DNA of 64,000 nt from Pristiophorus japonicus (lineage: Eukaryota). The notes below the pieces were generated by a model that was not told where the DNA came from, did no database searches, and saw only the letters and a list, made by a program, of their open reading frames with translations. The stretch lies in assembly GCF_044704955.1 (NCBI RefSeq), contig NC_092010.1:38626001-38690000 (forward strand), in the 5' to 3' direction. A program made the translations under genes and the position numbers. Positions 1 to 53,263 of the stretch are shown here, piece by piece; the stretch's first letter is position 1; the number at the start of each line of letters is the position of its first letter.

Positions 1-3000
1 CGGGGACTGTACATAGGCTGTGGGAGGGGATTAATTGGGTGGGTAGGGTCAGTGATAGGTGAGTGTATATGGGCTGTGGGAGGGGATTAAATGGGTGGGT
101 ACTGTCAGTGATAGGTGAGTGTACATGGGCTGTGGGAGGGGATTAATTGGGTGGGTAGGGTCAGTGATAGGTGAGTGTACATGGGCTGTGGGAGGGGATT
201 AATTGGGTGGGTAGGGTCAGTGATCGGGGAGTGTGTACATGGGCTGTGGGGGGGGATTAATTGGGTGGGTAGGGTCAGTGATAGGAGAGTGTAAATGGGC
301 TGTCGGAGGGGATTAAATGGGTGGGTAGAGTAAGTGATAGGGGAGTGCGTACATGTGCTGGGGGAGGGGATTAAATGCGTGTGTACAGTCAGTGATCGGG
401 GACTGTACATAGGCTGTGGGAGGGGATTAAATGGGTGGGTAGGGTCAGTGATACGGGATTGTGTACATGAGCTGGGGGGGGGGGGATTAAATGGCTGGGT
501 AGGGTCAGTGACATGGGAGTGTGTACATGTGCTGTGGGAGGTGATTAAATGGGTGGGTACCGTCAGTGATAGTGGAGTGTGTACATGGGCTGTGGGAGGG
601 GATTAAATGGGTGGGTAGGGTCAGTGATAGGGCAGTGTGTACATGGGCTGTGGGAGGGGATTAAATGGGTGGGTAGGGTCAGTGATAGGGGAGAGTGCAC
701 ATGGGCTGTGGGAGGGGATTAAATGGGTGGGTATAGTCAGTGATAGGGGAGTGTGCATGGGCTGTGGGAGGGGATTAAATGGGTGGGTAGAGTAAGTGAT
801 AGGGGAGAGTGTACATGGGCTGTGGGAGGCGATTAAATGGGTGGGTATAGTCAGTGATAGGGGAGTGTACATGGGCTGTGGGAGGGGATAAGTTGGGTGG
901 GTAGGGTCAGTGATAGGGGAGTGTAAATGGGCTGTGGGAGGGGATTAAATGGGTGGGTGGAGTCAGTGATCGGGGACTGTACATAGGCTGTGGGAGGGGA
1001 TTAAATGGGTGGGTAGTGTCAGTGATAGGGGAGTGTGTACATGGGCTGTGGGAGGGGATTAAATAGGTGGGTAGGGTCAGTGATAGGGGATTGTGTACAT
1101 GGGCTGTGGGAGGGGATTAAATGGGTGGGTAGGGTCAGTGATCGGGGAGTGTGTACATGGGCTGTGGGAGGTGATTAAATGGGTGGGTACTGTCAGTGAT
1201 AGGGGAGTGTGTACATGGGCTGTGGGAGGGGATTAAATGGGTGGGTAGGGTCAGTGATAGGGGAGTGTGTACATGGGCTGTGGGAGGGGATTAAATGGGT
1301 GGGTAGGGTCAGTGATAGGGGAGTGTGTACATGGGTTGTGGGAGGTGATTAAATGGGTGGGTATAGTCAGTGATAGGGGAGTGTATCTGGGCTGTGGGAG
1401 GCGATTAAATGGGTGGGTATAGACAGTGATGGGGGAGTGCACATGGGCTGTGGGAGGGGATTAAATGGGTGGGTAGGGTCAGTGATAGGTGAGTGTACAT
1501 GGGCTGTGCGAGGGGATTAAATGGGTGGGTATAGTCAGTGATAGGGGAGTGTACATGGGCTGTGGGAGGGGATTAAATGGGTGGGTAGGGTCAGTGATAG
1601 GGGAGAGTGCACATGGCCTGTGGGAGGGGATTAAATGGGTGGGTATCGTCAGTGATAGGGGAGTGTACATGGGCTGTGGGAGGGGATTAAATGGGTGGGT
1701 AGGGTCAGTGATAGGGGAGAGTGTGCATGGGCTGTGGGAGGCGATTAAATGGGTGGGTATAGTCAGTGATAGGGGAGTGTACATGGGCTGTGGGAGGGGA
1801 TTAATTGGGTGGGTAGGGTCAGTGATAGGAGAGTGTAAATGGGCTGTCGGAGGGGATTAAATGGGTGGGTAGAGTCAGTGATAGGGGAGTGTGTACATGT
1901 GCTGGGGGAGGGGATTAAATGGGTGGGTGCAGTCAGTGATCGGGGACTGTACATAGGCTGTGGGAGGGGATTAAATGGGTGGGTAGGGTCAGTGATAGGG
2001 GAGTGTGTACAGGGGCTGTGGGAGGTGATTAAATGGATGGGTACCGTCAGTGATAGGGGAGTGTGTACATGGGCTGTGGGAGGGGATTAAATGGGTGGGT
2101 AGGGTCAATGATAGGGGAGTGTGTACATGGGCTGTGGGAGGGGATTAAATGGGTGGGTAGGGTCAGTGATAGGGGAGTGTGTACATGGGCTGTGGGAGGT
2201 GATTAAATGGATGGGTAGGGTCAGTGATACGGGAGTGTGGACATGGGCTGTGGGAGGTGATTAAATGGGTGGGTATAGTCAGTGATGGGGGAGTGTACAT
2301 GGGCTGTGGGATGGGATTAAATGGGTGGGTAGGGTCAGTGATAGGTGAGTGTACATGGGCTGTGGGAGGGGATTAATTGGGTGGGTATAGTCAGTGATAG
2401 GGGAGTGTACATGGGCTGTGGGAGGCGATTAAATGGGTGGGTATAGTCAGTGATGGGGGAGTGTACATGGGCTGTGGGAGGGGATTAAATGGGTGGGTAG
2501 GGTCAGTGATAGGTGAGTGTACATGGGCTGTGCGAGGGGATTAAATGGGTGGGTATAGTCAGTGATAGGGGAGTGTACATGGGCTGTGGGAGGGGATTAA
2601 ATGGGTGGGTAGGGTCAGTGATAGGGGAGAGTGCACATGGGCTGTGGGAGAGGATTAAATGGGTGGGTATAGTCAGTGATAGGGGAGTGTACATGGGCTG
2701 TGGGAGGGGATTAAATGGGTGGGTAGGGTCAGTGATAGGGGAGAGTGTGCATGGGCTGTGGGAGGCGATTAAATGGGTGGGTATAGTCAGTGATAGGGGA
2801 GTGTACATGGGCTGTGGGAGGGGATTAATTGGGTGGGTAGGGTCAGTGATAGGAGAGTGTAAATGGGCTGTCGGAGGCGATTAAATGGGTGGGTAGAGTC
2901 AGTGATAGGGGAGTGTGTACATGTGCTGGGGGAGGGGATTAAATGGGTGGGTACAGTCAGTGATCGGGGACTGTACATAGGCTATGGGAGGGGATTAAAT

Positions 3001-6000
3001 GGGTGGGTAGGGTCAGTGATAGGGGATTGTGTACAGGGGCTGTGGGAGGGGATTAAATGGGTGGGTAGGGTCAGTGACAGGGGAGTGTGTACATGGGCTG
3101 TGGGAGGTGATTAAATGGGTGGGTACCGTCAGTGATAGGGGAGTGTGTACATGGGCTGTGGGAGGGGATTAAATGGGTGGGTAGGGTCAATGATAGGGGA
3201 GTGTGTACATGGGCTGTGGGAGGGGATTAAATGGGTGGATAGGGTCAGTGATAGGTGAGTGTGTACATGGGCTGTGGGAGGTGATTAAATGGATGGGCAG
3301 GGTCAGTGATACGGGAATGTAGACATGGGCTGTGGGAGGTGATTAAATGGGTGGGTATAGTCAGTGATGGGGGAGTGTACATGGGCTGTGGGACGGGATT
3401 AAATGGGTGGGTAGGGTCAGTGATAGGTGAGTGTACATGGGCTGTGGGAGGGGATTAATTGGGTGGGTATAGTCAGTGATAGGGGAGTGTACATTGGCTG
3501 TGGGAGGGGATTAATTGGGTGGGTAGGGTCAATGATAGGGGAGTGGAAATGGGCTGTGGGAGGGGATTAAATGGGTGGGTATAGTCAGTGATAGGGGAGT
3601 GTGTACATGTGCTGTGGGAGGGGATTAAATGGGTGGGTACAGTCAGTGATGGGGGAGTGTACATGGGCTGTGGGACGGGATTAAATGGGTGGGTAGGGTC
3701 AGTGATAGGTGAGTGTACATGGGCTGTGGGAGGGGATTAATTGGGTGGGTATAGTCAGTGATAGGGGAGTGTACATGGGCTGTGGGAGGGGATTAATTGG
3801 GTGGGTAGGGTCAATGATAGGGGAGTGGAAATGGGCTGTGGGAGGGGATTAAATGGGTGGGTATAGTCAGTGATAGGGGAGTGTGTACATGTGCTGTGGG
3901 AGGGGATTAAATGGGTGGGTACAGTCAGTGATCGGGGAGTGTACATAGGCTGTGGGAGGGGAAATAAATGGGTGAGTAGGGTCAGTGATAGGTGAGTGTA
4001 CATGGGCTGTGGGAGGGGATTAAATGGGTGGGTAGGGTCAGTGATACGGGAGTGTGTACATGGGATGTGGGAGGGGATTAAATGGGTGGGTAGGTTCAGT
4101 GATAGGGGAGAGTGTACATGGGCTGTGGGAGGGGATTAAATGGGTGGGTAGGGTCAGTGATAGGGGAGTGTGTACATGGGCTGTGGGAGGGGATTAAATG
4201 GTTGGGTCGGGTCAATGATAGTGGAGTGCACATGGGCTGTGGGAGGGGATTAAATAGGTGCGTAGGGTCAGTGATAGGGGAGAGTATACATGGGCTGTGG
4301 GAGGGGATTCAATGGGTGGTTAGGGTCAGTGATATGGAAGTGTACATTGTCTGTGGGAGGGGATTAAATGGGTGGGTAGGGTCAGTGATAGGGGAGAGTG
4401 CACATGGGCTGTGGGAGGGGATTAAATGGGTGGGTATAGTCAGTGATAGGGGAGTGTACATGGGCTGTGGGAGGGGATTAAATGGGTGGGTAGGGTCAGT
4501 GATAGGGGAGAGTGTACATGGGCTTTGGGAGGGGATTAAATAGGTGGGTAGGGTCAGTGATAGGAGATTGTGTACATGGGCTGTGGGAGGGGATTAAATG
4601 GGTGGGTAGGGTCAGTGATAGGGGAGAGTGTGTATGGGCTGTGGGAGGCGATTAAATGGGTGGGTATAGTCAGTGATAGGGGAGTGTACATGGGCTGTGG
4701 GAGGGGATTAATTGGGTGGGTAGGGTCAGTGATAGGAGAGTGTAAATGGGCTGTCGGAGGGGATTAAATGGGTGGGTAGAGTCAGTGATAGGGGAGTGTG
4801 TACATGTGCTGGGGGAGGGGATTAAATGGGTGGGTGCAGTCAGTGATCGGGGACTGTACATAGGCTGTGGGAGGGGATTAAATGGGTGGGTAGGGTCAGT
4901 GATAGGGGAGTGTGTACAGGGGCTGTGGGAGGTGATTAAATGGGTGGGTACCGTCAGTGATAGGGGAGTGTGTACATGGGCTGTGGGAGGGGATTAAATG
5001 GGTGGGTAGGGTCAATGATAGGGGAGTGTGTACATGGGCTGTGGGAGGGGATTAAATGGGTGGGTAGGGTCAGTGATAGGGGTGTGTGTACATGGGCTGT
5101 GGGAGGTGATTAAATGGATGGGTAGGGTCAGTGATACGGGAGTGTGGACATGGGCTGTGGGAGGTGATTAAATGGGTGGGTATAGTCAGTGATGGGGGAG
5201 TGTACATGGGCTGTGGGACGGGATTAAATGGGTGGGTAGGGTCAGTGATAGGTGAGTGTACATGGGCTGTGGGAGGGGATTAATTGGGTGGGTATAGTCA
5301 GTGATAGGGGAGTGTACATGGGCTGTGGGAGGGGATTAATTGGGTGGGTAGGGTCAATGATAGGGGACTGGAAATGGGCTGTGGGAGGGGATTAAATGGG
5401 TGGGTAGAGTCAGTGATAGGGGAGTGTGTACATGTGCTGGGGGAGGGGATTAAATGGGTGGGTGCAGTCAGTGATCGGGGACTGTACATAGGCTGTGGGA
5501 GGGGATTAAATGGGTGGGTAGGGTCAGTGATAGGGGAGTGTGTACAGGGGCTGTGGGAGGTGATTAAATGGATGGGTACCGTCAGTGATAGGGGAGTGTG
5601 TACATGGGCTGTGGGAGGGGATTAAATGGGTGGGTAGGGTCAATGATAGGGGAGTGTGTACATGGGCTGTGGGAGGGGATTAAATGGGTGGGTAGGGTCA
5701 GTGATAGGGGAGTGTGTACATGGGCTGTGGGAGGTGATTAAATGGATGGGTAGGGTCAGTGATACGGGAGTGTGGACATGGGCTGTGGGAGGTGATTAAA
5801 TGGGTGGGTATAGTCAGTGATGGGGGAGTGTACATGGGCTGTGGGATGGGATTAAATGGGTGGGTAGGGTCAGTGATAGGTGAGTGTACATGGGCTGTGG
5901 GAGGGGATTAATTGGGTGGGTATAGTCAGTGATAGGGGAGTGTACATGGGCTGTGGGAGGCGATTAAATGGGTGGGTATAGTCAGTGATGGGGGAGTGTA

Positions 6001-9000
6001 CATGGGCTGTGGGAGGGGATTAAATGGGTGGGTAGGGTCAGTGATAGGTGAGTGTACATGGGCTGTGCGAGGGGATTAAATGGGTGGGTATAGTCAGTGA
6101 TAGGGGAGTGTACATGGGCTGTGGGAGGGGATTAAATGGGTGGGTAGGGTCAGTGATAGGGGAGAGTGCACATGGGCTGTGGGAGAGGATTAAATGGGTG
6201 GGTATAGTCAGTGATAGGGGAGTGTACATGGGCTGTGGGAGGGGATTAAATGGGTGGGTAGGGTCAGTGATAGGGGAGAGTGTGCATGGGCTGTGGGAGG
6301 CGATTAAATGGGTGGGTATAGTCAGTGATAGGGGAGTGTACATGGGCTGTGGGAGGGGATTAATTGGGTGGGTAGGGTCAGTGATAGGAGAGTGTAAATG
6401 GGCTGTCGGAGGCGATTAAATGGGTGGGTAGAGTCAGTGATAGGGGAGTGTGTACATGTGCTGGGGGAGGGGATTAAATGGGTGGGTACAGTCAGTGATC
6501 GGGGACTGTACATAGGCTATGGGAGGGGATTAAATGGGTGGGTAGGGTCAGTGATAGGGGATTGTGTACAGGGGCTGTGGGAGGGGATTAAATGGGTGGG
6601 TAGGGTCAGTGACAGGGGAGTGTGTACATGGGCTGTGGGAGGTGATTAAATGGGTGGGTACCGTCAGTGATAGGGGAGTGTGTACATGGGCTGTGGGAGG
6701 GGATTAAATGGGTGGGTAGGGTCAATGATAGGGGAGTGTGTACATGGGCTGTGGGAGGGGATTAAATGGGTGGATAGGGTCAGTGATAGGTGAGTGTGTA
6801 CATGGGCTGTGGGAGGTGATTAAATGGATGGGCAGGGTCAGTGATACGGGAATGTAGACATGGGCTGTGGGAGGTGATTAAATGGGTGGGTATAGTCAGT
6901 GATGGGGGAGTGTACATGGGCTGTGGGACGGGATTAAATGGGTGGGTAGGGTCAGTGATAGGTGAGTGTACATGGGCTGTGGGAGGGGATTAATTGGGTG
7001 GGTATAGTCAGTGATAGGGGAGTGTACATTGGCTGTGGGAGGGGATTAATTGGGTGGGTAGGGTCAATGATAGGGGAGTGGAAATGGGCTGTGGGAGGGG
7101 ATTAAATGGGTGGGTATAGTCAGTGATAGGGGAGTGTGTACATGTGCTGTGGGAGGGGATTAAATGGGTGGGTACAGTCAGTGATGGGGGAGTGTACATG
7201 GGCTGTGGGACGGGATTAAATGGGTGGGTAGGGTCAGTGATAGGTGAGTGTACATGGGCTGTGGGAGGGGATTAATTGGGTGGGTATAGTCAGTGATAGG
7301 GGAGTGTACATGGACTGTGGGAGGGGATTAATTGGGTGGGTAGGGTCAATGATAGGGGAGTGGAAATGGGCTGTGGGAGGGGATTAAATGGGTGGGTATA
7401 GTCAGTGATAGGGGAGTGTGTACATGTGCTGTGGGAGGGGATTAAATGGGTGGGTACAGTCAGTGATCGGGGAGTGTACATAGGCTGTGGGAGGGGAAAT
7501 AAATGGGTGAGTAGGGTCAGTGATAGGTGAGTGTACATGGGCTGTGGGAGGGGATTAAATGGGTGGGTAGGGTCAGTGATACGGGAGTGTGTACATGGGA
7601 TGTGGGAGGGGATTAAATGGGTGGGTAGGTTCAGTGATAGGGGAGAGTGTACATGGGCTGTGGGAGGGGATTAAATGGGTGGGTAGGGTCAGTGATAGGG
7701 GAGTGTGTACATGGGCTGTGGGAGGGGATTAAATGGTTGGGTCGGGTCAATGATAGTGGAGTGCACATGGGCTGTGGGAGGGGATTAAATAGGTGCGTAG
7801 GGTCAGTGATAGGGGAGAGTATACATGGGCTGTGGGAGGGGATTCAATGGGTGGTTAGGGTCAGTGATATGGAAGTGTACATTGTCTGTGGGAGGGGATT
7901 AAATGGGTGGGTAGGGTCAGTGATAGGGGAGAGTGCACATGGGCTGTGGGAGGGGATTAAATGGGTGGGTATAGTCAGTGATAGGGGAGTGTACATGGGC
8001 TGTGGGAGGGGATTAAATGGGTGGGTAGGGTCAGTGATAGGGGAGAGTGTACATGGGCTTTGGGAGGGGATTAAATAGGTGGGTAGGGTCAGTGATAGGA
8101 GATTGTGTACATGGGCTGTGGGAGGGGATTAAATGGGTGGGTAGGGTCAGTGATAGGGGAGAGTGTGTATGGGCTGTGGGAGGCGATTAAATGGGTGGGT
8201 ATAGTCAGTGATAGGGGAGTGTACATGGGCTGTGGGAGGGGATTAATTGGGTGGGTAGGGTCAGTGATAGGAGAGTGTAAATGGGCTGTCGGAGGGGATT
8301 AAATGGGTGGGTAGAGTCAGTGATAGGGGAGTGTGTACATGTGCTGGGGGAGGGGATTAAATGGGTGGGTGCAGTCAGTGATCGGGGACTGTACATAGGC
8401 TGTGGGAGGGGATTAAATGGGTGGGTAGGGTCAGTGATAGGGGAGTGTGTACAGGGGCTGTGGGAGGTGATTAAATGGGTGGGTACCGTCAGTGATAGGG
8501 GAGTGTGTACATGGGCTGTGGGAGGGGATTAAATGGGTGGGTAGGGTCAATGATAGGGGAGTGTGTACATGGGCTGTGGGAGGGGATTAAATGGGTGGGT
8601 AGGGTCAGTGATAGGGGTGTGTGTACATGGGCTGTGGGAGGTGATTAAATGGGTGGGTATAGTCAGTGATGGGGGAGTGTACATGGGCTGTGGGACGGGA
8701 TTAAATGGGTGGGTAGGGTCAGTGATAGGTGAGTGTACATGGGCTGTGGGAGGGGATTAATTGGGTGGGTATAGTCAGTGATAGGGGAGTGTACATGGGC
8801 TGTGGGAGGGGATTAATTGGGTGGGTAGGGTCAATGATAGGGGACTGGAAATGGGCTGTGGGAGGGGATTAAATGGGTGGGTATAGTCAGTGATAGGGGA
8901 GTGTGTACATGTGCTGTGGGAGGGGATTAAATGGGTGGGTACAGTCAGTGATCGGGGAGTGTACATAGGCTGTGGGAGGGGAAATAAATGGGTGGGTCGG

Positions 9001-12000
9001 GTCAGTGATAGGTGAGTGTCCATGGGCTGTGGGAGGGGATTTAATGGGTGGGTAGGGTCAGTGATAGGGGAGTGTGTACATGGGATGTGGGAGGGGATTA
9101 AATGGGTGGGTAGGGTCAGTGATAGGGGAGAGTGTGCATGGGCTGTGGGAGGCAATTAAATGGGTGGGTACAGTCAGTGATCGGGGACTGTACATAGGCT
9201 ATGGGAGGGGATTAAATGGGTGGGTAGGGTCAGTGATAGGGGATTGTGTACAGGGGCTGTGGGAGGGGATTAAATGGGTGGGTAGGGTCAGTGACAGGGG
9301 AGTGTGTACATGGGCTGTGGGAGGTGATTAAATGGGTGGGTACCGTCAGTGATAGGGGAGTGTGTACATGGGCTGTGGGAGGGGATTAAATGGGTGGATA
9401 GGGTCAGTGATAGGTGAGTGTGTACATGGGCTGTGGGAGGTGATTAAATGGATGGGCAGGGTCAGTGATACGGGAATGTAGACATGGGCTGTGGGAGGTG
9501 ATTAAATGGGTGGGTATAGTCAGTGATGGGGGAGTGTACATGGGCTGTGGGACGGGATTAAATGGGTGGGTAGGGTCAGTGATAGGTGAGTGTACATGGG
9601 CTGTGGGAGGGGATTAATTGGGTGGGTATAGTCAGTGATAGGGGAGTGTACATGGGCTGTGGGAGGGGATTAATTGGGTTGGTAGGGTCAATGATAGGGG
9701 AGTGGAAATGGGCTGTGGGAGGGGATTAAATGGGTGGGTATAGTCAGTGATAGGGGAGTGTGTACATGTGCTGTGGGAGGGGATTAAATGGGTGGGTACA
9801 GTCAGTGATCGGGGAGTGTACATAGGCTGTGGGAGGGGAAATAAATGGGTGAGTAGGGTCAGTGATAGGTGAGTGTACATGGGCTGTGGGAGGGGATTAA
9901 ATGGGTGGGTAGGGTCAGTGATACGGGAGTGTGTACATGGGATGTGGGAGGGGATTAAATGGGTGGGTAGGGTCAGTGATAGGGGAGAGTGTACATGGGC
10001 TGTGGGAGGGGATTAAATGGGTGGGTAGGGTCAGTGATAGGGGAGTGTGTACATGGGCTGTGGGAGGGGATTAAATGGTTGGGTAGGGTCAGTGATAGTG
10101 GAGTGCACATGGGCTGTGGGAGGGGATTAAATAGGTGCGTAGGGTCAGTGATAGGGGAGAGTATACATGGGCTGTGGGAGGGGATTCAATGGGTGGTTAG
10201 GGTCAGTGATATGGAAGTGTACATTGTCTGTGGGAGGGGATTAAATGGGTGGGTAGGTTCAGTGATAGGGGAGAGTGCACATGGGCTGTGGGAGGGGATT
10301 AAATGGGTGGGTATAGTCAGTGATAGGGGAGTGTACATGGGCTGTGGGAGGGGATTAAATGGGTGGGTAGGGTCAGTGATAGGGGAGAGTGTACATGGGC
10401 TTTGGGAGGGGATTAAATAGGTGGGTAGGGTCAGTGATAGGGGATTGTGTACATGGGCTGTGGGAGGGGATTAAATGGGTGGGTAGGGTCAGTGATCGGG
10501 GAGTGTGTACATGGGCTGTGGGAGGGGATTAAATGGGTGGGTAGGGTCAGTGATATGTGAGTGTACATGGGCTGTGGGAGGGGATTAAATGGGTGGGTAT
10601 AGTCAGTGATAGGGAAATGTGCACGTGGGCTGTGGGAGGGGATTAAATGGGTGGGTAGGGTCAGTGATAGGTGAGTGTACATGGGCTGTGGGAGGAGAGT
10701 AAATGAGTGGGTAGGGTCAGTGATAGGGGAGTGTGTACATGGGCTGTGGGAGGGGATTAAATGGGTGGGTAGGGTCAGTGATAGGGGAGAGTGCACATGG
10801 GCTGTGGGAGGGGATTAAATGGGTGGGTATAGTCAGTGATAGGGGAGTGTGTACGTGGGCTGTGGGAGGGGATTAAATGGGTGGGTAGGGTCAGTGATGG
10901 GGAGTGTGTACATGGGCTGTGGGAGGGGATTAAATGGGTGGGTATAGTCAGTGATAGCGGAGAGTGTACATGGGCTGTGGGAGGGGAGTAAATGAGTGGG
11001 TAGGGTCAGTGATAGGGGAGTGTGTACATGGGCTGTGGGAGGGGATTAAATGGGTGGGTAGGGTCAGTGACAGGGGAGTGTGTACATGGGCTGTGGGAGG
11101 GGATTAAATGGGTGGGTAGGGTCAGTGATAGGGGAGTGTACATGGGCTGTGGGAGGGGATTAAATGGCTGGGTAGGGTCAGTGATCGGGGAGTGTGTACA
11201 TGGGCTGTGGGAGGGGATTAAATGGGTGGGTAGGGTCAGTGATATGTGAGTGTACATGGGCTGTGGGAGGGGATTAAATGGGTGGGTATAGTCAGTGATA
11301 GGGGAGTGTGCACGTGGGCTGTGGGAGGGGATTAAATGGGTGGGTAGGGTCAGTGATAGGTGAGTGTACATGGGCTGTGGGAGGAGAGTAAATGAGTGGG
11401 TAGGGTCAGTGATAGGGGAGTGTGTACATGGGCTGTGGGAGGTGATTAAATGGGTGGGTAGGGTCAGTGATAGGGGAGTGTGTACATGGGCTGTGGGAGG
11501 GGAATAAATGGGTGGGTAGGGTCAGTGATGGGGAGTGTGTACATGGGCTGTGGGAGGGGATTAAATGGGTGGGTATAGTCAGTGATAGCGGAGAGTGTAC
11601 ATGGGCTGTGGGAGGGGAGTAAATGAGTGGGTAGGGTCAGTGATAGGGGAGTGTGTACATGGGCTGTGGGAGGGGATTAAATGGGTGGGTAGGGTCAGTG
11701 ATAGTGGAGTGTACATGGGCTGTGGGAGGGGATTAAATGGGTGGGTAGGGTCAGTTATACGGGAGAGTGTACATGGGCTGTGGGAGGGGATTAAATGGGT
11801 GGGTAGGGTCAGTGATAGGGAAGTGTCCATTGGCAGTGGGAGGGGATTAAATGGGTGGGTAGGGTCAGTGATAGGGGAGAGTGCACATGGGCTGTGGGAG
11901 GGGATTAAATGGGTGGGTATAGTCAGTGATAGGGGAGTGTGTACATGTGCTGGGGGAGGGGATTAAATGGGTGGGTGCAGTCAGTGATCGGGGACTGTAC

Positions 12001-15000
12001 ATAGGCTGTGGGAGGGGATTAAATGGGTGGGTAGGGTCAGTGATAGGGGAGTGTGTACAGGGGCTGTGGGAGGTGATTAAATGGGTGGGTACCGTCAGTG
12101 ATAGGGGAGTGTGTACATGGGCTGTGGGAGGGGATTAAATGGGTGGGTAGGGTCAATGATAGGGGAGTGTGTACATGGGCTGTGGGAGGGGATTAAATGG
12201 GTGGGTAGGGTCAATGATAGGGGAGTGTGTACATGGGCTGTGGGAGGGGATTAAATGGGTGGGTAGGGTCAGTGATAGGGGTGTGTGTACATGGGCTGTG
12301 GGAGGTGATTAAATGGATGGGTAGGGTCAGTGATACGGGAGTGTGGACATGGGCTGTGGGAGGTGATTAAATGGGTGGGTATAGTCAGTGATGGGGGAGT
12401 GTACATGGGCTGTGGGACGGGATTAAATGGGTGGGTAGGGTCAGTGATAGGTGAGTGTACATGGGCTGTGGGAGGGGATTAATTGGGTGGGTATAGTCAG
12501 TGATAGGGGAGTGTACATGGGCTGTGGGAGGGGATTAATTGGGTGGGTAGGGTCAATGATAGGGGACTGGAAATGGGCTGTGGGAGGGGATTAAATGGGT
12601 GGGTATAGTCAGTGATAGGGGAGTGTGTACATGTGCTGTGGGAGGGGATTAAATGGGTGGGTACAGTCAGTGATCGGGGAGTGTACATAGGCTGTGGGAG
12701 GGGAAATAAATGGGTGGGTCGGGTCAGTGATAGGTGAGTGTCCATGGGCTGTGGGAGGGGATTTAATGGGTGGGTAGGGTCAGTGATAGGGGAGTGTGTA
12801 CATGGGATGTGGGAGGGGATTAAATGGGTGGGTAGGGTCAGTGATAGGGGAGAGTGTGCATGGGCTGTGGGAGGCAATTAAATGGGTGGGTACAGTCAGT
12901 GATCGGGGACTGTACATAGGCTATGGGAGGGGATTAAATGGGTGGGTAGGGTCAGTGATAGGGGATTGTGTACAGGGGCTGTGGGAGGGGATTAAATGGG
13001 TGGGTAGGGTCAGTGACAGGGGAGTGTGTACATGGGCTGTGGGAGGTGATTAAATGGGTGGGTACCGTCAGTGATAGGGGAGTGTGTACATGGGCTGTGG
13101 GAGGGGATTAAATGGGTGGATAGGGTCAGTGATAGGTGAGTGTGTACATGGGCTGTGGGAGGTGATTAAATGGATGGGCAGGGTCAGTGATACGGGAATG
13201 TAGACATGGGCTGTGGGAGGTGATTAAATGGGTGGGTATAGTCAGTGATGGGGGAGTGTACATGGGCTGTGGGACGGGATTAAATGGGTGGGTAGGGTCA
13301 GTGATAGGTGAGTGTACATGGGCTGTGGGAGGGGATTAATTGGGTGGGTATAGTCAGTGATAGGGGAGTGTACATGGGCTGTGGGAGGGGATTAATTGGG
13401 TTGGTAGGGTCAATGATAGGGGAGTGGAAATGGGCTGTGGGAGGGGATTAAATGGGTGGGTATAGTCAGTGATAGGGGAGTGTGTACATGTGCTGTGGGA
13501 GGGGATTAAATGGGTGGGTACAGTCAGTGATCGGGGAGTGTACATAGGCTGTGGGAGGGGAAATAAATGGGTGAGTAGGGTCAGTGATAGGTGAGTGTAC
13601 ATGGGCTGTGGGAGGGGATTAAATGGGTGGGTAGGGTCAGTGATACGGGAGTGTGTACATGGGATGTGGGAGGGGATTAAATGGGTGGGTAGGGTCAGTG
13701 ATAGGGGAGAGTGTACATGGGCTGTGGGAGGGGATTAAATGGGTGGGTAGGGTCAGTGATAGGGGAGTGTGTACATGGGCTGTGGGAGGGGATTAAATGG
13801 TTGGGTAGGGTCAGTGATAGTGGAGTGCACATGGGCTGTGGGAGGGGATTAAATAGGTGCGTAGGGTCAGTGATAGGGGAGAGTATACATGGGCTGTGGG
13901 AGGGGATTCAATGGGTGGTTAGGGTCAGTGATATGGAAGTGTACATTGTCTGTGGGAGGGGATTAAATGGGTGGGTAGGGTCAGTGATAGGGGAGAGTGC
14001 ACATGGGCTGTGGGAGGGGATTAAATGGGTGGGTATAGTCAGTGATAGGGGAGTGTACATGGGCTGTGGGAGGGGATTAAATGGGTGGGTAGGGTCAGTG
14101 ATAGGGGAGAGTGTACATGGGCTTTGGGAGGGGATTAAATAGGTGGGTAGGGTCAGTGATAGGGGATTGTGTACATGGGCTGTGGGAGGGGATTAAATGG
14201 GTGGGTAGGGTCAGTGATCGGGGAGTGTGTACATGGGCTGTGGGAGGGGATTAAATGGGTGGGTAGGGTCAGTGATATGTGAGTGTACATGGGCTGTGGG
14301 AGGGGATTAAATGGGTGGGTATAGTCAGTGATAGGGAAATGTGCACGTGGGCTGTGGGAGGGGATTAAATGGGTGGGTAGGGTCAGTGATAGGTGAGTGT
14401 ACATGGGCTGTGGGAGGAGAGTAAATGAGTGGGTAGGGTCAGTGATAGGGGAGTGTGTACATGGGCTGTGGGAGGGGATTAAATGGGTGGGTAGGGTCAG
14501 TGATAGGGGAGAGTGCACATGGGCTGTGGGAGGGGATTAAATGGGTGGGTATAGTCAGTGATAGGGGAGTGTGTACGTGGGCTGTGGGAGGGGATTAAAT
14601 GGGTGGGTAGGGTCAGTGATGGGGAGTGTGTACATGGGCTGTGGGAGGGGATTAAATGGGTGGGTATAGTCAGTGATAGCGGAGAGTGTACATGGGCTGT
14701 GGGAGGGGAGTAAATGAGTGGGTAGGGTCAGTGATAGGGGAGTGTGTACATGGGCTGTGGGAGGGGATTAAATGGGTGGGTAGGGTCAGTGACAGGGGAG
14801 TGTGTACATGGGCTGTGGGAGGGGATTAAATGGGTGGGTAGGGTCAGTGATAGGGGAGTGTACATGGGCTGTGGGAGGGGATTAAATGGCTGGGTAGGGT
14901 CAGTGATCGGGGAGTGTGTACATGGGCTGTGGGAGGGGATTAAATGGGTGGGTAGGGTCAGTGATATGTGAGTGTACATGGGCTGTGGGAGGGGATTAAA

Positions 15001-16255
15001 TGGGTGGGTATAGTCAGTGATAGGGGAGTGTGCACGTGGGCTGTGGGAGGGGATTAAATGGGTGGGTAGGGTCAGTGATAGGTGAGTGTACATGGGCTGT
15101 GGGAGGAGAGTAAATGAGTGGGTAGGGTCAGTGATAGGGGAGTGTGTACATGGGCTGTGGGAGGTGATTAAATGGGTGGGTAGGGTCAGTGATAGGGGAG
15201 TGTGTACATGGGCTGTGGGAGGGGAATAAATGGGTGGGTAGGGTCAGTGATGGGGAGTGTGTACATGGGCTGTGGGAGGGGATTAAATGGGTGGGTATAG
15301 TCAGTGATAGCGGAGAGTGTACATGGGCTGTGGGAGGGGAGTAAATGAGTGGGTAGGGTCAGTGATAGGGGAGTGTGTACATGGGCTGTGGGAGGGGATT
15401 AAATGGGTGGGTAGGGTCAGTGATAGTGGAGTGTACATGGGCTGTGGGAGGGGATTAAATGGGTGGGTAGGGTCAGTTATACGGGAGAGTGTACATGGGC
15501 TGTGGGAGGGGATTAAATGGGTGGGTAGGGTCAGTGATAGGGGAGAGTGCACATGGGCTGTGGGAGGGGATTAAATGGGTGGGTATAGTCAGTGATAGGG
15601 GAGTGTGCATGGGCTGTGGGAGGGGATTAATTGGGTGGGTAGGGTCAGTGATAGGGGAGTGTAAATGGGCTGTGGGAGGGGATTAAATGGGTGGGTATGG
15701 TCAGTGATAGGGGAGTGTGTACATGGGCTGTGGGAGGGGATTAAATGGGTGGGTAGGGTCAGTGATAGGTGAGTGTACATGGGCTGTGGGAGGGGATTAA
15801 ATGGGTGGGTATGGTCAGTGATAGGGGAGTGTGTACATGGGCTGTGGGAGGGGATTAAATGGGTGGGTAGGGTCAGTGATAGGTGAGTGTGCATGGGCTG
15901 TGGGAGGGGAGTAAATGAGTGGGTAGGGTCAGTGATAGGGGAGTATGTACATGGGCTGTGGGAGGGGATTAAATGGGTGGGTATAGTCAGTGATAGGGGA
16001 GTGTGTACATGGGCTGTGGGAGGGGATTAAATGGGTGGGTCGGGTCAGTAACAGGGGAGTGTGTACATGGGCTGTGGGAGGGGACTAAATGGGTGGGTAT
16101 GGTCAGTGATAGGGGAGTGTACATGGGCTGTGGGAGGGGATTAAAAGGGTGGGTAGGGTCAGTGACAGGGGAGTGTGTACATGGGCTGTGGGAGGGGATT
16201 AAATGGGTGGGTAGGATCAGTGATAGGGGAGTGTGTACATGGGCTGTGGGAGGGC
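1..16255. repeat. Large G-rich tandem satellite, 56/58-bp unit (GGGCTGTGGGAGGGGATTAAATGGGTGGGTAGGGTCAGTGATAGGGGAGTGT[GT]ACAT), roughly 285 units, open at window start
   Basis: Continuous tandem repetition is directly visible. Unit length varies by a GT dinucleotide. Identical ORF translations recur at fixed offsets (3535 and 3722 bp). Confidence 0.99.
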
Positions 16256-16302
16256 ATTACATGGGAGGATAGGGATGGTGATACGGTGTAGTGTAGATGG
16301 AG

Positions 16303-47001: not shown

Positions 47002-47344
47002 AATGCAAAACAATTTTCCATTTTTTTTTTTGAAGAGCATCAATACTGAGGAACTGACATCATAAAAAGATGCCTCGTATCATAAATAGCGAATAACCTT
47101 TCCAAGGTACACAGCTGGCATCTGGTGGCAGTAAATAGAACTGCAATCATTCTTTTCTTATATTTTGGGGATTACCCAAACTCAACTGCAAATAATTTCC
47201 AAGTAAATTTGCAATAATGATGTCCAGTTATTCTTTGTGTCGGAACACACATCCAGTATCAACACCAGCTTAATGGATAGTGGCGCCTACATTAACAACA
47301 GCTGGCAAACCTGAAACATACCCAACATAAAACAAAAACAACCC

Positions 47345-47480
47345 ATAATGGCTCAGTTGGTAAATGTATGCCCATTATGAAATAAACCACATAGACCAGG
47401 AAGGAGACAGGTTCCATCCCTGGTCTGTGCTGAGTCAGTCAGATCTCTGCCAGGACAGCAGTAACGCCTTAGGGTTGGGC
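47345..47480 (+). mobile_element. Degenerate tRNA-derived SINE head (host sequence of the snRNA-retroposon insertions)
   Basis: TGGCTCAGTTGG (A box) ... CAGGTTCCATCCCTGGTCTGTGCTGAGT (B-box-like). Similar degenerate pieces at ~38620, ~55230 and ~34550. Confidence 0.5.
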
Positions 47481-47494
47481 GTCAGTGTCAGAGT

Positions 47495-47725
47495 GGTGGG
47501 GTGGCTTGACCCATCCACCTCCACGGAGGTGTGTGGGGGACCTGACCCATCCACCTCCATGGCACGAACCTGGTATTGCAGTACTTCCAGGAACGGTGCA
47601 CTGGCTCTAGGCCTTTTGGCTAAGAGCATTGGCGCAGAGTGATCCTTGGCGTGTGCAAGGTGACCTCTGGCGTTTGTGATTTGACAAAGAATTGGAACGA
47701 TTGGCTACGAATTTCAAAAAAAAAA
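47495..47725 (+). mobile_element. 5'-truncated U2-derived poly(A) retroposon (copy 1)
   Basis: U2 3' stem-loop ACCTGGTATTGCAGTACTTCCAGGAACGGTGCAC, then a U2 5'-stem copy GGCCTTTTGGCTAAGA, unique 3' region and A10. Flanked by GTCAGTGTCAGAGT on both sides (47481-94, 47726-39). Confidence 0.88.
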
Positions 47726-47739
47726 GTCAGTGTCAGAGT

Positions 47740-48060
47740 CACTGTTCGGCCTTTTGGCTAAGATCATGCGTAACTGACCTGACAGGGGAGTAGCCACCAT
47801 AACCCCAAGGTGGTTCTCCCTGGATCAGGAAGGTATATGCTTGCTTTTTTGGAAATAGGAGGTGTGTGGGGGGCCTGACCCATCCACCTCCATGGCACGA
47901 ACCTGGTATTGCAGTACTTCCAGGAACGGTGCAGTGGCTCTAGGCCTTTTGGCTAAGAGCATTGGCGCAGAGTGATCCTTGAATGGGCCCAAGGTGACCT
48001 CTGGCGTTTGTGATTTGACAAAGAATTGGAACGATTGGCTACGAATTTCAAAAAAAAAAA
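47740..48060 (+). mobile_element. Apparently full-length chimeric U2/U1 snRNA-derived SINE-like retroposon (copy 2)
   Basis: TCGGCCTTTTGGCTAAGATCA (U2 nt ~9-29); then ACTGACCTGACAGGGGAG...AAGGTGGTTCTCCC (U1 5' domain-like); then TTTTTTGG Sm-like site + U2 stem-loops III/IV; then a second U2 stem I; then 3' region, A11 and GTCAGTGTCA. Confidence 0.88.
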
Positions 48061-48078
48061 GTCAGTGTCAAAGAGTAT

Positions 48079-48438
48079 GAAAGAAAGAAAAATACTTGGA
48101 TTTATATAGCGCCTTTCACAACCACTGGACGTCTCAAAGTGCTTTACAGCCAATGAAGTACTTTTTGGATTGTAGTCACTGTTGTAATGTGGAAAACGCA
48201 GCAGCCAATTTGCACACAGCAAGCTCCCATAAACAGCAATGTGATAATGACCAGATAATCTGTTTTTTGTTATCGGTTCATTATCACATTGCTGTGTGTG
48301 GGAGTTTGCTGTGCGCAAATTGGTGTTTCCCACATTACAACAGTGACTACACTCCAAAAAATGCTTCATTGGCTGTAAAGCACCATAGGACATCCTGATG
48401 TCGTGAACGGCGCTATAGAAATGCAAGTTCTTCCTTTC
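48079..48438. mobile_element. Two Deu-SINE 3' fragments in inverted orientation (48079-48268 minus; 48277-48438 plus)
   Basis: ...CAGCAATGTGATAATGACCAGATAATC on the left mirrors CATTATCACATTGCTG... on the right; both SINE tails point outward. Confidence 0.85.
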
Positions 48439-49184
48439 TACTGGCCATTTGGATATGTACCCCAGCAAAGGAGTCAGCACCTTCAAAAGAAGAATGAGGA
48501 GAAAAATTGAGGGGTGGGATTTTTCAGTAAATCAAATCTGGGGAAAGAATAAAATAAGACATGTTGTATTATCCACAATCTCAGACTGTTATTCTCAGCT
48601 TTTTTTACAAGCTGGAAAGGTTTTCAGCATTCACAATGTAAGAATAGGTTTTGTGCCTTAAACAGTAAGTGCAAATGGAAATATAAAATATTAGCTACGT
48701 CACCAATACAGAAAACAATCGACAGTCAGACAGCATTAATGACAGTGAACAAACACCCTGTTTATATGACTGTATAAGCCCCCAGAAAACCAACATATTT
48801 AGGATTATGATTTCATAATATGTACAGTGGATTACAAATACTGTGACACTACATTATGTAATTTGAGGCTAATCAAGAGTTACTTCCATGGAATCTATGG
48901 AGGGCATAATTTTAGGCAGCCATATTGAAGCATGTTAACTCCTATAAGCGTATGTAACAGCACAGGTTGAAACAGGCCATTTGTAGATCATGCTTTTGCA
49001 TCCAACTCAGAGTTGCTATGGATAAGTGTAGACTGAGATAATGGAGGAAAGAGGGGGAAGGGAATGTTGTCTGTGCAGGGCAGCAAGCCAAGGTTGAATA
49101 ATTGAAATATGAAGATGGATGTATATTCTGGATTGGATTACCTTTAGGGATCAGTGAGTATTTATACAGAACTTCCCCTCATGA

Positions 49185-49452
49185 GATTAACTGGGTGGGG
49201 AGAGTCCGTGATAGAGGAGTGTACATGGGCTGTGGGAGGAGATTAAATGGGTGGGTAGGGTCAGTGATAGGGGAGTGTACATGGGCTGTGGGTGGGGATT
49301 AAATAGGTGGGTAGAGTCAGTGATAGGGGAGTGTGTACATGGGCTGTGGGAGGGGATTAAATGGGTGGGTAGGGTCAGTGATAGGGGAGTGTACATGGGC
49401 TGTGGGAGGAGATTAAATGGGTGGGTAAAGTCCTTGATAGGGGTGAGTGTAC
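49185..49452. repeat. Orphan short array (~4.5 units) of the 56/58-bp satellite
   Basis: Same unit and orientation as 1-16255. Confidence 0.95.
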
Positions 49453-50325: not shown

Positions 50326-53263
50326 GGGCTGTAACCTCCACTTTTGTGCTTATTGCCCAAAAATGGGCGTTATTTCCGGCGTGGGCAGTAAAAAAGGGTT
50401 TTCAGATCACCGGCTTCTCGCCCATTCCCAAAGCACCTAGTCTCCATTTTTGAAAATGGGCATTACCAAGAGCGATATGAAATGGGCGGTAGCGTTAAAT
50501 TTTTTTGACCTTCTGCTGTAAAGTGTGGCCGCCCTTAGCAACGGCATGGCAACGCTTGATTCCTGCGATTCTGGAGGTCAAGGGTCACCATGACATGTGC
50601 AGAATAGGAGAGAGAGAGAGAGCGAGAGAGAGGGAGCTCAGAGGCACTGAAAGCGTGTGTGGCTGTGGTGTGTGCTTGTTTGGCTGTTGTGGGAGGCATG
50701 AGGGAGATTCACCAGCAGCGAAAAGCCTACTATGCACCAAGAACATAGATGGCACTGAGTTTTTGTCCAACAAATAAGATACAACATGGAAGCGATGGTG
50801 GAGGTCCTGGAGCTGGTAGCCAGGAACACTGGTGGCAGAGGGCTCCCAGTGGTCCCAGAGCGCTGCACTGCACCCCAAGATGCCGCACCCCCATTGCCAA
50901 CCACACGAGAGCCAGCAGCAACATCTTGCTTCTGGCTCAGAGCACGTTCCCACCTCGGGACTGTCCTCTCCTGTATCCGTCCAAGCAGCAGTTCAGCCGT
51001 CATTACCCCCACACCCCCCCGACACCAACCCCCCCCCCCCAACCACCCCCTCCACACCCCCCAATGAAGCATCGCCTGAGGAACTCCTCGGCCAGACGGC
51101 TTGGAGTCAGGAGGGGAAGGGGTAGAGATGGGGGGGGCGGGGGAAGGGCTGGTTTGTACAGAAATACTGATGATTTCAGACTAATGTTCGGTTTAAATGT
51201 TTTTTTATTTAACAAAACCTTGTTGCGCATTGGCTCAGAGAGGTGCACCGTTACACGCTGGTGATTTCTTTACATCAAAGCGTATAATGACACTTATCTT
51301 CAATCAACTTAAACTTTAACTGTCACCAAGGTGATGCCCACCATTGATGTATAACCTGCACACCCAGCAGTGTGTCAGCCTTGTAAATAACACCAACGTT
51401 CTTTCAGGCAAAGCGATCATTGATGAGCTCCTGACGCAAGGCTCTTGCAGCTATCATGCCACCATGGGCTCTTTCATGCGGTCTACAGGGGGCCGGGGGA
51501 TGGCTTCAGCATCAGCCTGATTGTCTGGGCCGATATCAGCGTCCACCTCCTCATTCTCCTCTTCCTCTCTCTGGTGAGGTGGACTATCAGACTCATCAAG
51601 CAATTCTTGCCCCCTCCTGATAGCCAAGTTGTGCAGTATGGAGCACACCACCACGAATTGAGCTACCTGCTCAGGGGGATATTGGAGCTCGCCTCCTGAG
51701 TGGTCCAGGCATTTAAAGCACTGCTTCAGCACTCCAATGGTTTTCTCCATAATATTATAAGTTGCTCTGTGGCTCTCTTTGTACCGCCTCTCGGCTTCGG
51801 TGTGGGTGTCACACAGGGGGGTCATCAGCCAGGTGGCGAGGCCATATCCTTTGTCATCAAGCATCCAGCATTGATCTTGTGGCTGATTGTTAAACAAGTC
51901 AGATACAGTGCTCTCACGCAGGATGTGAGCATCATGGATGCTGCCCAGAAATTGAGTATTCACTGCCAGTATAATTTGCTGGTGGTCGACGAGTTGGACA
52001 TTCAGGGAGTGGAATCCCTTGCGGTTCCTGAAAACCTCTACATCCTGAAAAGGTGCCCGCATCACGATGTGCGTACAGTCTATTGCTCCCTACACCTTGG
52101 GGAAGTTTGCAATTCTGGAGAATCCTAGAGCCCTCTCACTCTGTGCCTCCCTGGTCATAGGGAAGCTGATCAAGTCCCTCCTGCGTGTGTACAGGGCTTC
52201 AGTGACCTGTCCAATGCAGCGATGTGTGGCATGCTGAGAAAGTCCACAAATGTCTCCAACTGTGGCCTGAAAAGAACCCGAGGCATAGAACGACAGTGCT
52301 GCGGTGACTTTGACCTCGACGCACAGTGCAGTACTGATGGTGCTGGCAGGCTGCAGATCTGCCCTTATAAGCTGGCATACTTCAGTGATAACCTCTTTGT
52401 GGAAGCACATCTCCGAAGGCAGGTGTTGTCAGGCAAGTCGAGGTAAGAATACTTCTCCTTGTACTTGCAGGGGGTGTAACATCTGGTCCTCCTCATCAGT
52501 CTGTCACGTCTTACATTGGGCACATAATGCAGTGGAGCGTTCCTTCGGCGATGTCGAGTCTGCTGCATGTAATTGGTCACCAAGAGAGAGTGAGAAAAGA
52601 CAGGCCCCATTTGCAATAGCTCTCTGTTTTCCACCGATTGGTCACAAACAACGAATGTCCCTACGAAGACACCTATTCAATTCCAATTGGTCACTGTATG
52701 GTCAAGATGTTTGTAGAGATGTTCACATCAACTCCAACGACCTGCAGAGTACATCCGAACTCCGCCGAGGTTGAAGCACAGCAGCCTTTTAAAGGATGCG
52801 ACATGTGATCTAGAACATGGCATCCATAACGCTGTGATTAGTTCCGCTTAGTTGCACTTTTTCTGGGCGTTTTTTTGGGCGAGCGATATTGTGGGCGATG
52901 TGCGCGAGGTGGTGAAATTGACGCTGGGCGATCTCATGGCTGCTAGTTTCGGTAAATATGCTCTTTACGACAAAAAACAGTGGGCGGAGCGTTAAATCAG
53001 TGCGGAAAGTAACGCTGGGAGATATGGGCGTTGATTTCGCCCATTCTGATGATTCTGCCCCAAAGAATTGGGCGGGCGGTAATATTTTTTCCCTGCGTTA
53101 AGCACATGAGGAAAGTAACGCTCGGCAATAAGTTTCTGAAAAATGCCCGCCAGTTTCTATTTTGTGCCAAAATGGGCGATATATGGGTGTTATATGTCAT
53201 TTCAGTGGTAAAATGGGCGTTAAATGGGCGTTAAGCATGCAAAAAAAGTGGAGGTTCTAGCCC
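50326..53263 (-). mobile_element. PIF/Harbinger DNA transposon, defective (~2.94 kb)
   Basis: TIR GGGCTGTAACCTCCACTTTT vs revcomp GGGCTAGAACCTCCACTTTT (18/20). 3-bp ATA on both flanks. Subterminal TGGGCG repeats. Confidence 0.95.
51454..52634 (-). pseudogene. Disrupted Harbinger (HARBI1-like) DDE transposase
   Basis: ALSFYASGSFQATVGDICGLSQ...FPKV*GAIDCTHI...FRNRKGFHSLNVQ...GSIHDAHIL...LDDKGY...IMEKTIGVLKQCFKCL. Frameshift near 52400 and stop at 52090. Confidence 0.92.

Follow-up and report, generated by a model that had tools for sequence, protein, structure and literature searches.

Short interspersed elements with heads derived from spliceosomal snRNAs (SINEU) have been described in crocodilians, and according to the accessible text of the original report the families SINEU-1, -2, and -3 are found only there (Kojima, 2015; PMC4494074). 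The same text names Mariner-N4 as the preferred target, leaves the transcription of the elements as a question, and proposes Pol II read-through from flanking DNA for SINEU-2. A review of 2017, in its available part, restates that SINEU is crocodilian and that its transcription is unsettled (PMC5381603). A second group of related systems consists of LINEs that insert into U2 genes. Keno is a U2-specific LINE of the Tx1 clade that encodes an APE and has U2 from nucleotide (nt) 39 onward as its 3' flank, so far as the accessible text tells, and the junction of Keno and Utopia is U2 nt 38/39 (PMC4640811). A matching flank motif for the Keno site is given in the available part of PMC6136364, and Keno is only listed in that of PMC3706591. 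A search of the literature, covering largely open-access papers, found no snRNA-headed SINEs outside of crocodilians and no mention of copies of such elements in U2 genes. The family described here may already be a catalogued one.

The window, a stretch of 64,000 nucleotides from the genome of Pristiophorus japonicus, contains a poly(A)-tailed mosaic at positions 47746-48060. Alignment to the U2 and U1 genes of the same genome, which served as references for the module borders, yields the plan U2 nt 1-35, U1 nt 3-57, U2 nt 100-186, U2 nt 7-29, and tail, with all modules on the plus strand. An earlier note, made from the letters of the window, had described a chimeric U2/U1 mosaic with poly(A) and had placed its modules correctly, with small border shifts compared to the genome's own genes. 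It had overlooked that the copy is 5'-truncated, that a second copy is present at 47495-47725, and that the first six bases of its range (47740-47745), at the 5' junction, are outside of the element, as the alignment of other copies begins at 47746 unless they have U2 nt 1-8 instead.

The U2 head comprises nt 9-35 with stem-loop I (47746-47772) and matches U2 at 25 of 27 positions, nt 9-29 being exact. U2 nt 1 is the start of full copies, and nt 1-8 are missing here through truncation. The U1-derived piece, nt 3-57 (47773-47829), occupies the place of the branch-point pairing region and stem II of U2, and the replacement of the branch-point region as well as the alteration of the 5' splice-site pairing bases had both been recognized before. 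The piece is 77% identical to the genome's U1 over 57 nt (E 2e-8), and its local score of 29 compares with a maximum of 17 among 2,000 shuffles. An Rfam score for U1 had been recommended as the test of its identity. This score was not significant (13.8 bits, E 0.72 for the window copy; 11.6 bits, E 1 for a full-length copy), and it was replaced by the direct alignment to the genome's own U1, which was significant. The U1 stem I is kept and folds, but most positions of its 10-base loop are different in the U1 of the genome, and the loop varies further among other subfamilies. The next module, U2 nt 100-186 with an Sm-site U-run (T6) and stem-loops III and IV (47846-47934), has 76% identity to U2. 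The recommended Rfam check of the U2 part was positive, with 53 bits (E 1.8e-9) compared to a gathering threshold of 46. Of the two types of U2 gene in this genome, the closer one differs from 47901-47933 by two mismatches, and not by one as counted before. The A preceding the Sm-like U-run is absent in the window's subfamily, and U2 loop IV does not vary among the subfamilies. Proteins expected to bind such elements are U1-70K, U2B'', and Sm, and the assumption that the protein-binding hairpins have been kept holds for U2 loop IV, but only for the stem of the U1-70K-type hairpin.

A second U2 stem-loop I, nt 7-29 (47939-47961), with 21 of 23 positions matching, is followed by a tail of 88 bases with hairpins (47962-48049) and by an A11 tract (48050-48060). 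The tail had been called unique, but a sister family that lacks the U1 piece has a homologous one. No Rfam family was assigned to the tail of the mosaic in scans of the window copy and a full-length copy. Rfam matches to a prion pseudoknot, miRNAs, and PVT1 were below gathering and were judged to be due to chance. Judged by its sequence, transcription of the element by Pol III is unlikely because it contains no B box and has T4-T6 runs in its interior; A-box matches are only loose and are confined to the 3' part. Classical SINEs have a head of the tRNA, 5S, or 7SL type that contains a Pol III promoter; no such promoter was found in the head of this element, and ARAGORN detected no tRNA in the 64-kb window.

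The element is one of two family copies in tandem, the common 14-bp target of which is present three times on the plus strand. The first target copy (47481-47494) precedes a 5'-truncated copy of the long variant with a duplicated U2 stem-loop III (47495-47715), which is 96% identical to the downstream copy and has its own poly(A) (47716-47725). The second target copy (47726-47739) separates the two elements, and the third, with two extra bases (48061-48076), follows the downstream poly(A). The DNA around the copy pair includes a region that resembles an old tRNA-headed SINE remnant (47340-47480) and, in the repeat right after the element, a long imperfect hairpin with Rfam miRNA matches below gathering (48214-48314). 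Elsewhere the window contains a 16-kb G-rich satellite with a 58-bp period, about 285 copies, and a GC skew of about 0.77 (8-16274), the unit of which is found again at 49183-49452, and a DNA-transposon remnant with a stop-free frame of 211 aa on the minus strand (51454-52089; Pfam DDE_Tnp_4, E 1.3e-29).

The mosaic is a real and young multi-copy family. A 23-mer from the tail of the window's subfamily occurs 2,441 times in the genome (control 0), and a search of the own genome yielded 1,803 candidates, the 40 scored ones being full-length matches with 97-100% identity. Together with the target duplications, this confirms the multi-copy retroposon of the SINEU type that the earlier note had proposed, and the copy number excludes a mosaic that exists at one locus. 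The element is non-coding and about 303-348 bases long, plus poly(A). Among the first 30 tail matches 16 have a target duplication, with a median of 16 bp, and 7 have a tandem family neighbor; the respective numbers are 17 and 9 for 30 dispersed copies of the subfamily that also resides in U2 genes. The duplication finder made no assignment in 14, 13, and 19 of 30 cases for the window set, the resident-type set, and the partner LINE, respectively, and three of the resident-type lengths are inflated by tandem neighbors. The subfamilies differ in the U1 part, the duplication of stem-loop III, and the tail. Among 78 5' ends from 89 loci, 27 are at the very start of U2 (16 at nt 1, 11 at nt 2). 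Some copies have extra U2 5' pieces (L023, L161, L163, L226), as would be expected if snRNA chimeras were generated independently and one at a time by template switching of a LINE, similar to the U6-L1 chimeras. Such an origin is exceedingly improbable, and it was rejected for the family, as the internal junctions and the tail are common to thousands of copies at 97-100% identity.

The sister family without U1 consists of the whole U2 minus 10 bases, U2 nt 7-35, and the homologous tail (loci L003, L006, L027, L028, L030, L067-L072, L143, and L144). A pattern for its tail has 522 matches. Its copies insert in U2 genes and are themselves targets at U2 nt 38/39. Most simply, the mosaic would have arisen from the sister family by an exchange of U2 nt 36-99 for the 5' domain of U1, because the tails are homologous and one copy has an intermediate tail. 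This copy, an older and truncated one, is found at L087 (C14, about 76.77 Mb), an orphan piece of a U2 array that consists of a LINE end, U2 from nt 39 to its end, a whole spacer, and a LINE head. Upstream of L006 (C3, 312,191,316-312,191,458), directly before two tandem copies, an array of U2 nt about 12-53 with a 41-bp period is present.

The target preference of the family became apparent among the first 30 loci, in three of which the poly(A) of the element adjoins U2 nt 38/39 within a copy of the sister family. The U1 piece removed the mosaic family's own U2 target site, whereas the sister family retains the site and gets invaded. A genome-wide pattern search for poly(A) at U2 nt 38/39 before an intact U2 body revealed 59 places, 57 of them within U2 gene clusters. 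The mosaic family accounts for 21 of these junctions, a Keno-like APE-RT LINE for 32, and the sister family for 6, and 283 intact U2 genes remain beside them. Real insertions at U2 nt 38/39 make the link to Keno and Utopia stronger than had been guessed. Outside of the clusters, 14 further copies end at U2 nt 38/39 in U2-derived repeats, compared to about 0.005 expected from a hand calculation with 2,441 copies, about 800 targets, and a tolerance of 30 bases; 13 of them read on into U2-derived sequence, and the fourteenth is L027. One family copy is inserted at U2 nt 38/39 of the U2 head of the LINE itself. About 99% of the family copies are located elsewhere than U2 nt 38/39. A second hotspot is one site, in antisense orientation, between the RNase H and integrase coding parts of the pol gene of an LTR retroelement, presumably Ty3/Gypsy. 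It is occupied by 7 of 30 resident-type copies, by 1 of 30 copies of the window set, and by none of 30 LINE 3' ends (loci L232, L236, L239, L240, L245, L246, L256, and L119), and it may point to another motor.

Full-length intact copies of the partner LINE with an own U2 nt 1-44 head are present in the U2 arrays (L152:1776-7910 on the minus strand, L142, and L155). ORF1 (581 aa) contains ZCCHC3-type RNA-binding domains and a zinc knuckle, and ORF2 (1,147 aa) contains an N-terminal APE, an RT, and zf-RVT. The best relative of solved structure for ORF2 is the L1 ORF2. The nearest named full-length protein match is a pufferfish RT (Q76B34/BAD04856.1; 39%), to which no element name is attached, and the best identities of short pieces, 71-81% over 6-9% of the protein, are to gene models of the horn shark, in keeping with a cartilaginous fish. 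A search of a protein atlas retrieved only generic RT/APE clusters. The LINE is Keno-like because of its APE and its U2 nt 38/39 junction. Its 3' end has 487 matches genome-wide, the first 30 of which are dispersed. The dispersed copies, 29 of 30 ends being alignable, are 83-97% identical to the array copy, so that several LINE subfamilies appear to exist. Target duplications of the LINE have a median of 13 bp in 11 of 30 cases, compared to 16 bp for the element. Twenty 5' junctions of the LINE could be compared. In 12 of them a single head starts at +1, and because 11 of these have LINE-specific head variants, the LINE head replaced the head of the gene. Two further junctions are double-headed, with the LINE head starting from nt 1, and six are headless junctions of tandem LINEs. 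Where LINE copies follow one another in tandem, the joint between them is the target site.

Family copies also occur in tandem with LINE pieces (L002, L020, and L028, 3 of 60; L256, 1 of 60), and a family or sister copy is found within 1.5 kb of 2 of 30 LINE ends, compared to about 0.05 expected by density in a hand calculation. The tail of the element and the LINE have no common sequence beyond short chance matches. A derivation of the tail from the partner LINE was ruled out, as no alignment was better than chance. One might assume that the family is transcribed from U2 genes and that the main motor of the dispersed copies is a different LINE of the Tx1/L1 type, as the LTR-pol hotspot is absent among 30 LINE 3' ends, the dispersed LINE copies, at 83-97% to the array copy, represent several subfamilies, and the element and the LINE have no tail in common. 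The identical junction base in U2, the similar duplication lengths, and the tandem co-insertions with LINE pieces, including the one at L143, make this very improbable.

The copies inside of U2 genes are arranged in a characteristic way. Of the 21 copies, 17 start exactly at +1 behind array-type U2 upstream DNA, and one (L066) starts at +1 behind the second U2 gene type. The remaining three are a copy at a contig end, a copy that is 5'-truncated behind a LINE, and a copy of another variant that has lost its upstream DNA (L065). An occupied gene thus begins with its U2 upstream DNA, which leads at +1 into the element and its poly(A); U2 from nt 39 to its end and the downstream DNA follow. The resident copies are single-headed, and nt 29-38 of the host gene are missing and not duplicated. 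Family copies at U2 nt 38/39 and at U2 +1 behind U2 upstream DNA are new.

Only two U2 gene types were seen, and a family copy is found behind the upstream DNA of each. For this reason the U2 upstream DNA is presumed to have promoter function for the elements as well. The upstream DNAs of the two types are unrelated (L040, L061, and neighbors). The array type is compact, with a period of about 770 bp and GTT/GAT microsatellites, and the second type forms the C9 cluster with a spacing of 18-20 kb. No octamer was found in the scanned DNA of either U2 type, only the U1 genes having one, and a shuffle test of the four snRNA upstream types detected no significant shared proximal element in any of six pairs, including U1 versus U1. 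Insertions of LINEs and SINEs almost saturate one end of the C19 array (69.62-69.72 Mb).

The 17 full resident units represent three haplotypes (14, 2, and 1 units). The 17 copies in the array might go back to only one or two insertions. The amplification of resident units in arrays, the preserved stems of U1 and U2 origin, and the constancy of U2 loop IV across subfamilies would also be compatible with a separate variant gene of the snRNA kind that possesses a promoter and a 3' box, the RNA of which has a function for the host and the copies of which are processed pseudogenes. We regard this as quite improbable, as every resident unit bears the marks of retroposition (poly(A), then U2 from nt 39 to the end), as the U1 loop, the Sm site, and the splice-site pairing bases decay and differ by subfamily, and as the subfamilies turn over fast.

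The resident subfamily has close relatives elsewhere in the genome. Its tail has 197 matches. Each of the first 30 dispersed copies has 98.5-100% identity to one of the residents, and 25 of them start at nt 1-12. Compared to the resident haplotypes, 24 near-full dispersed copies are identical in two cases (L249 and L247) and differ by one base in 16, by two bases in five, and by three bases in one case; L258 also has an array-type variant. The window's subfamily is larger, with 2,441 tail matches versus 197. A search with its exact head and upstream ends like those of the two known U2 types found none residing in a U2 gene next to U2 upstream DNA; 33 matches for its heads include none in U2 clusters, and 29 upstream stretches resemble no snRNA upstream DNA. 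A LINE-mobilized family might therefore be transcribed from dispersed masters, by read-through from flanking Pol II promoters or from an unrecognized internal promoter, and the U2-gene copies would be sinks. The residents may be sinks that go back to no more than three or four insertions and became numerous through array turnover. This alternative can draw on the main subfamily having no resident copy, on the distance of 1-3 bases that separates 22 of 24 dispersed copies from the residents, and on the failure of the shuffle test to find a shared proximal element. Nevertheless, it is rather unlikely. The 16 copies that reach nt 1 share no 5' extension, neither common upstream bases nor U2 upstream bases, and the same is true for the other upstream DNA that was read. 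Furthermore, three dispersed copies that have a long poly(A) (L247, L249, and L258) display derived variants specific to the arrays.

Transcription of resident units is also indicated by a 3' transduction of U2 by the LINE. At L143 (C36, about 17,132,400-17,138,500) a dispersed, 5'-inverted LINE copy has a U2 head, poly(A), array-type U2 nt 39-171, and a second poly(A), all inside one 12-bp duplication, and a full sister-family copy is present in tandem. Therefore, a read-through RNA from an array-type U2 gene was retroposed, and L143 is the fossil trace of a transcript with its 5' end at the start of U2 that extended through a resident element. A genome-wide search for the junction pattern found no dispersed family copy with a transduced intact U2 sequence from nt 39 to the end.

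Taken together, it is probable that the family is a SINEU-type retroposon that is mobilized by a LINE and transcribed from hijacked U2 genes. The element is copied by target-primed reverse transcription, as its poly(A), its 5' truncation, its piling up in tandem, and the duplication of its targets show. The U2 nt 38/39 site is common to the element and the intact Keno-like APE-RT LINE, which is the likely motor, and because the specificity of both is relaxed, most copies land elsewhere. In the rare hits in U2 genes, the U2 head of the element would anneal to the 5' end of the gene and then replace it, and the DNA structure of the residents shows that it stands in for the first 38 bases. RNA polymerase II might then initiate at U2 +1 and transcribe the element and the U2 remnant, and priming by the LINE protein at the internal A tract would produce offspring that starts from U2 nt 1 and ends in poly(A). 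Array turnover would multiply or delete the residents, so that masters would be transient, and the resident source of the window's subfamily might be lost, unassembled, or absent in the sequenced individual. We also favor, a little more guardedly, a general view of this cycle, namely, that a SINE without a promoter has hijacked U2 genes as its masters, that the U2 head is a homology handle by which it inherits the transcription start of the gene, that relaxed targeting scatters thousands of dead copies, and that new masters arise only when U2 genes are hit again, array turnover then spreading or purging them.

Close relatives inside of U2 genes at the start of the gene suggest how promoter-less snRNA SINEs get transcribed. 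If this is true, one cycle may explain all snRNA-headed SINEs as well as the U1/U2 heads of Tx1 elements. Besides very young copies, the genome offers candidate source loci and a partner LINE that is intact; it represents a second vertebrate lineage with snRNA-headed SINEs, and two related families show the assembly of the mosaic. The 59 occupied junctions beside 283 intact genes also illustrate the parasite load of U2 genes, and promoter capture in target-specific gene insertion has a model in the arrival of a small RNA at +1 of an snRNA gene with many copies.

The family agrees with SINEU in its head derived from U1 and U2, a length of less than 500 bp, the 3' poly(A), the marks of non-LTR retroposition, amplification from masters, the absence of an internal Pol III promoter together with oligo-T inside, and a target preference in common with a Tx1-type LINE. 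The crocodilian elements, so far as the accessible descriptions go, are likewise short with poly(A), U1/U2 heads, and oligo-T inside, and have added snRNA pieces repeatedly. They also insert in tandem around one duplication and have a Tx1-type partner with a U1/U2 head and a tail that is not in common. SINEU-3 is paralleled by the sister family, with its internally deleted U2 and tail, and SINEU-2 by the U1-then-U2 core of the mosaic. However, the described crocodilian target is Mariner-N4 and no copy in an snRNA gene is reported there, while the copies found here are at +1 of U2 genes and at the Keno site. The families were compared by description only, and an independent origin is likely.

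The array LINE resembles Keno, as described in the available texts, in its APE and RT, two ORFs, the U2 nt 38/39 junction, and the flank motif. In contrast to Keno, which is described as U2-specific, only 32 junctions at intact U2 accompany its 487 3'-end matches. A non-autonomous passenger of Keno is not described in the accessible parts of PMC4640811, PMC6136364, PMC3706591, or PMC4494074. Utopia shares the U2 site, and the specificity of some Utopia families is weak according to the available text (PMC4640811), but Utopia has a restriction-like endonuclease and the array LINE an APE instead. A further parallel is R2 in the 28S rRNA genes, which, according to the accessible text, has no promoter of its own, is co-transcribed from its target gene, and is helped to integrate precisely by target-derived 5' sequence (PMC4494074). 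The difference, as far as described there, is that R2 depends on Pol I and rRNA. R2 has short, internally deleted passengers, the R2 deletion derivatives. In contrast, the passenger found here is built from snRNA pieces, has no sequence relationship to its LINE, and is for the most part dispersed.
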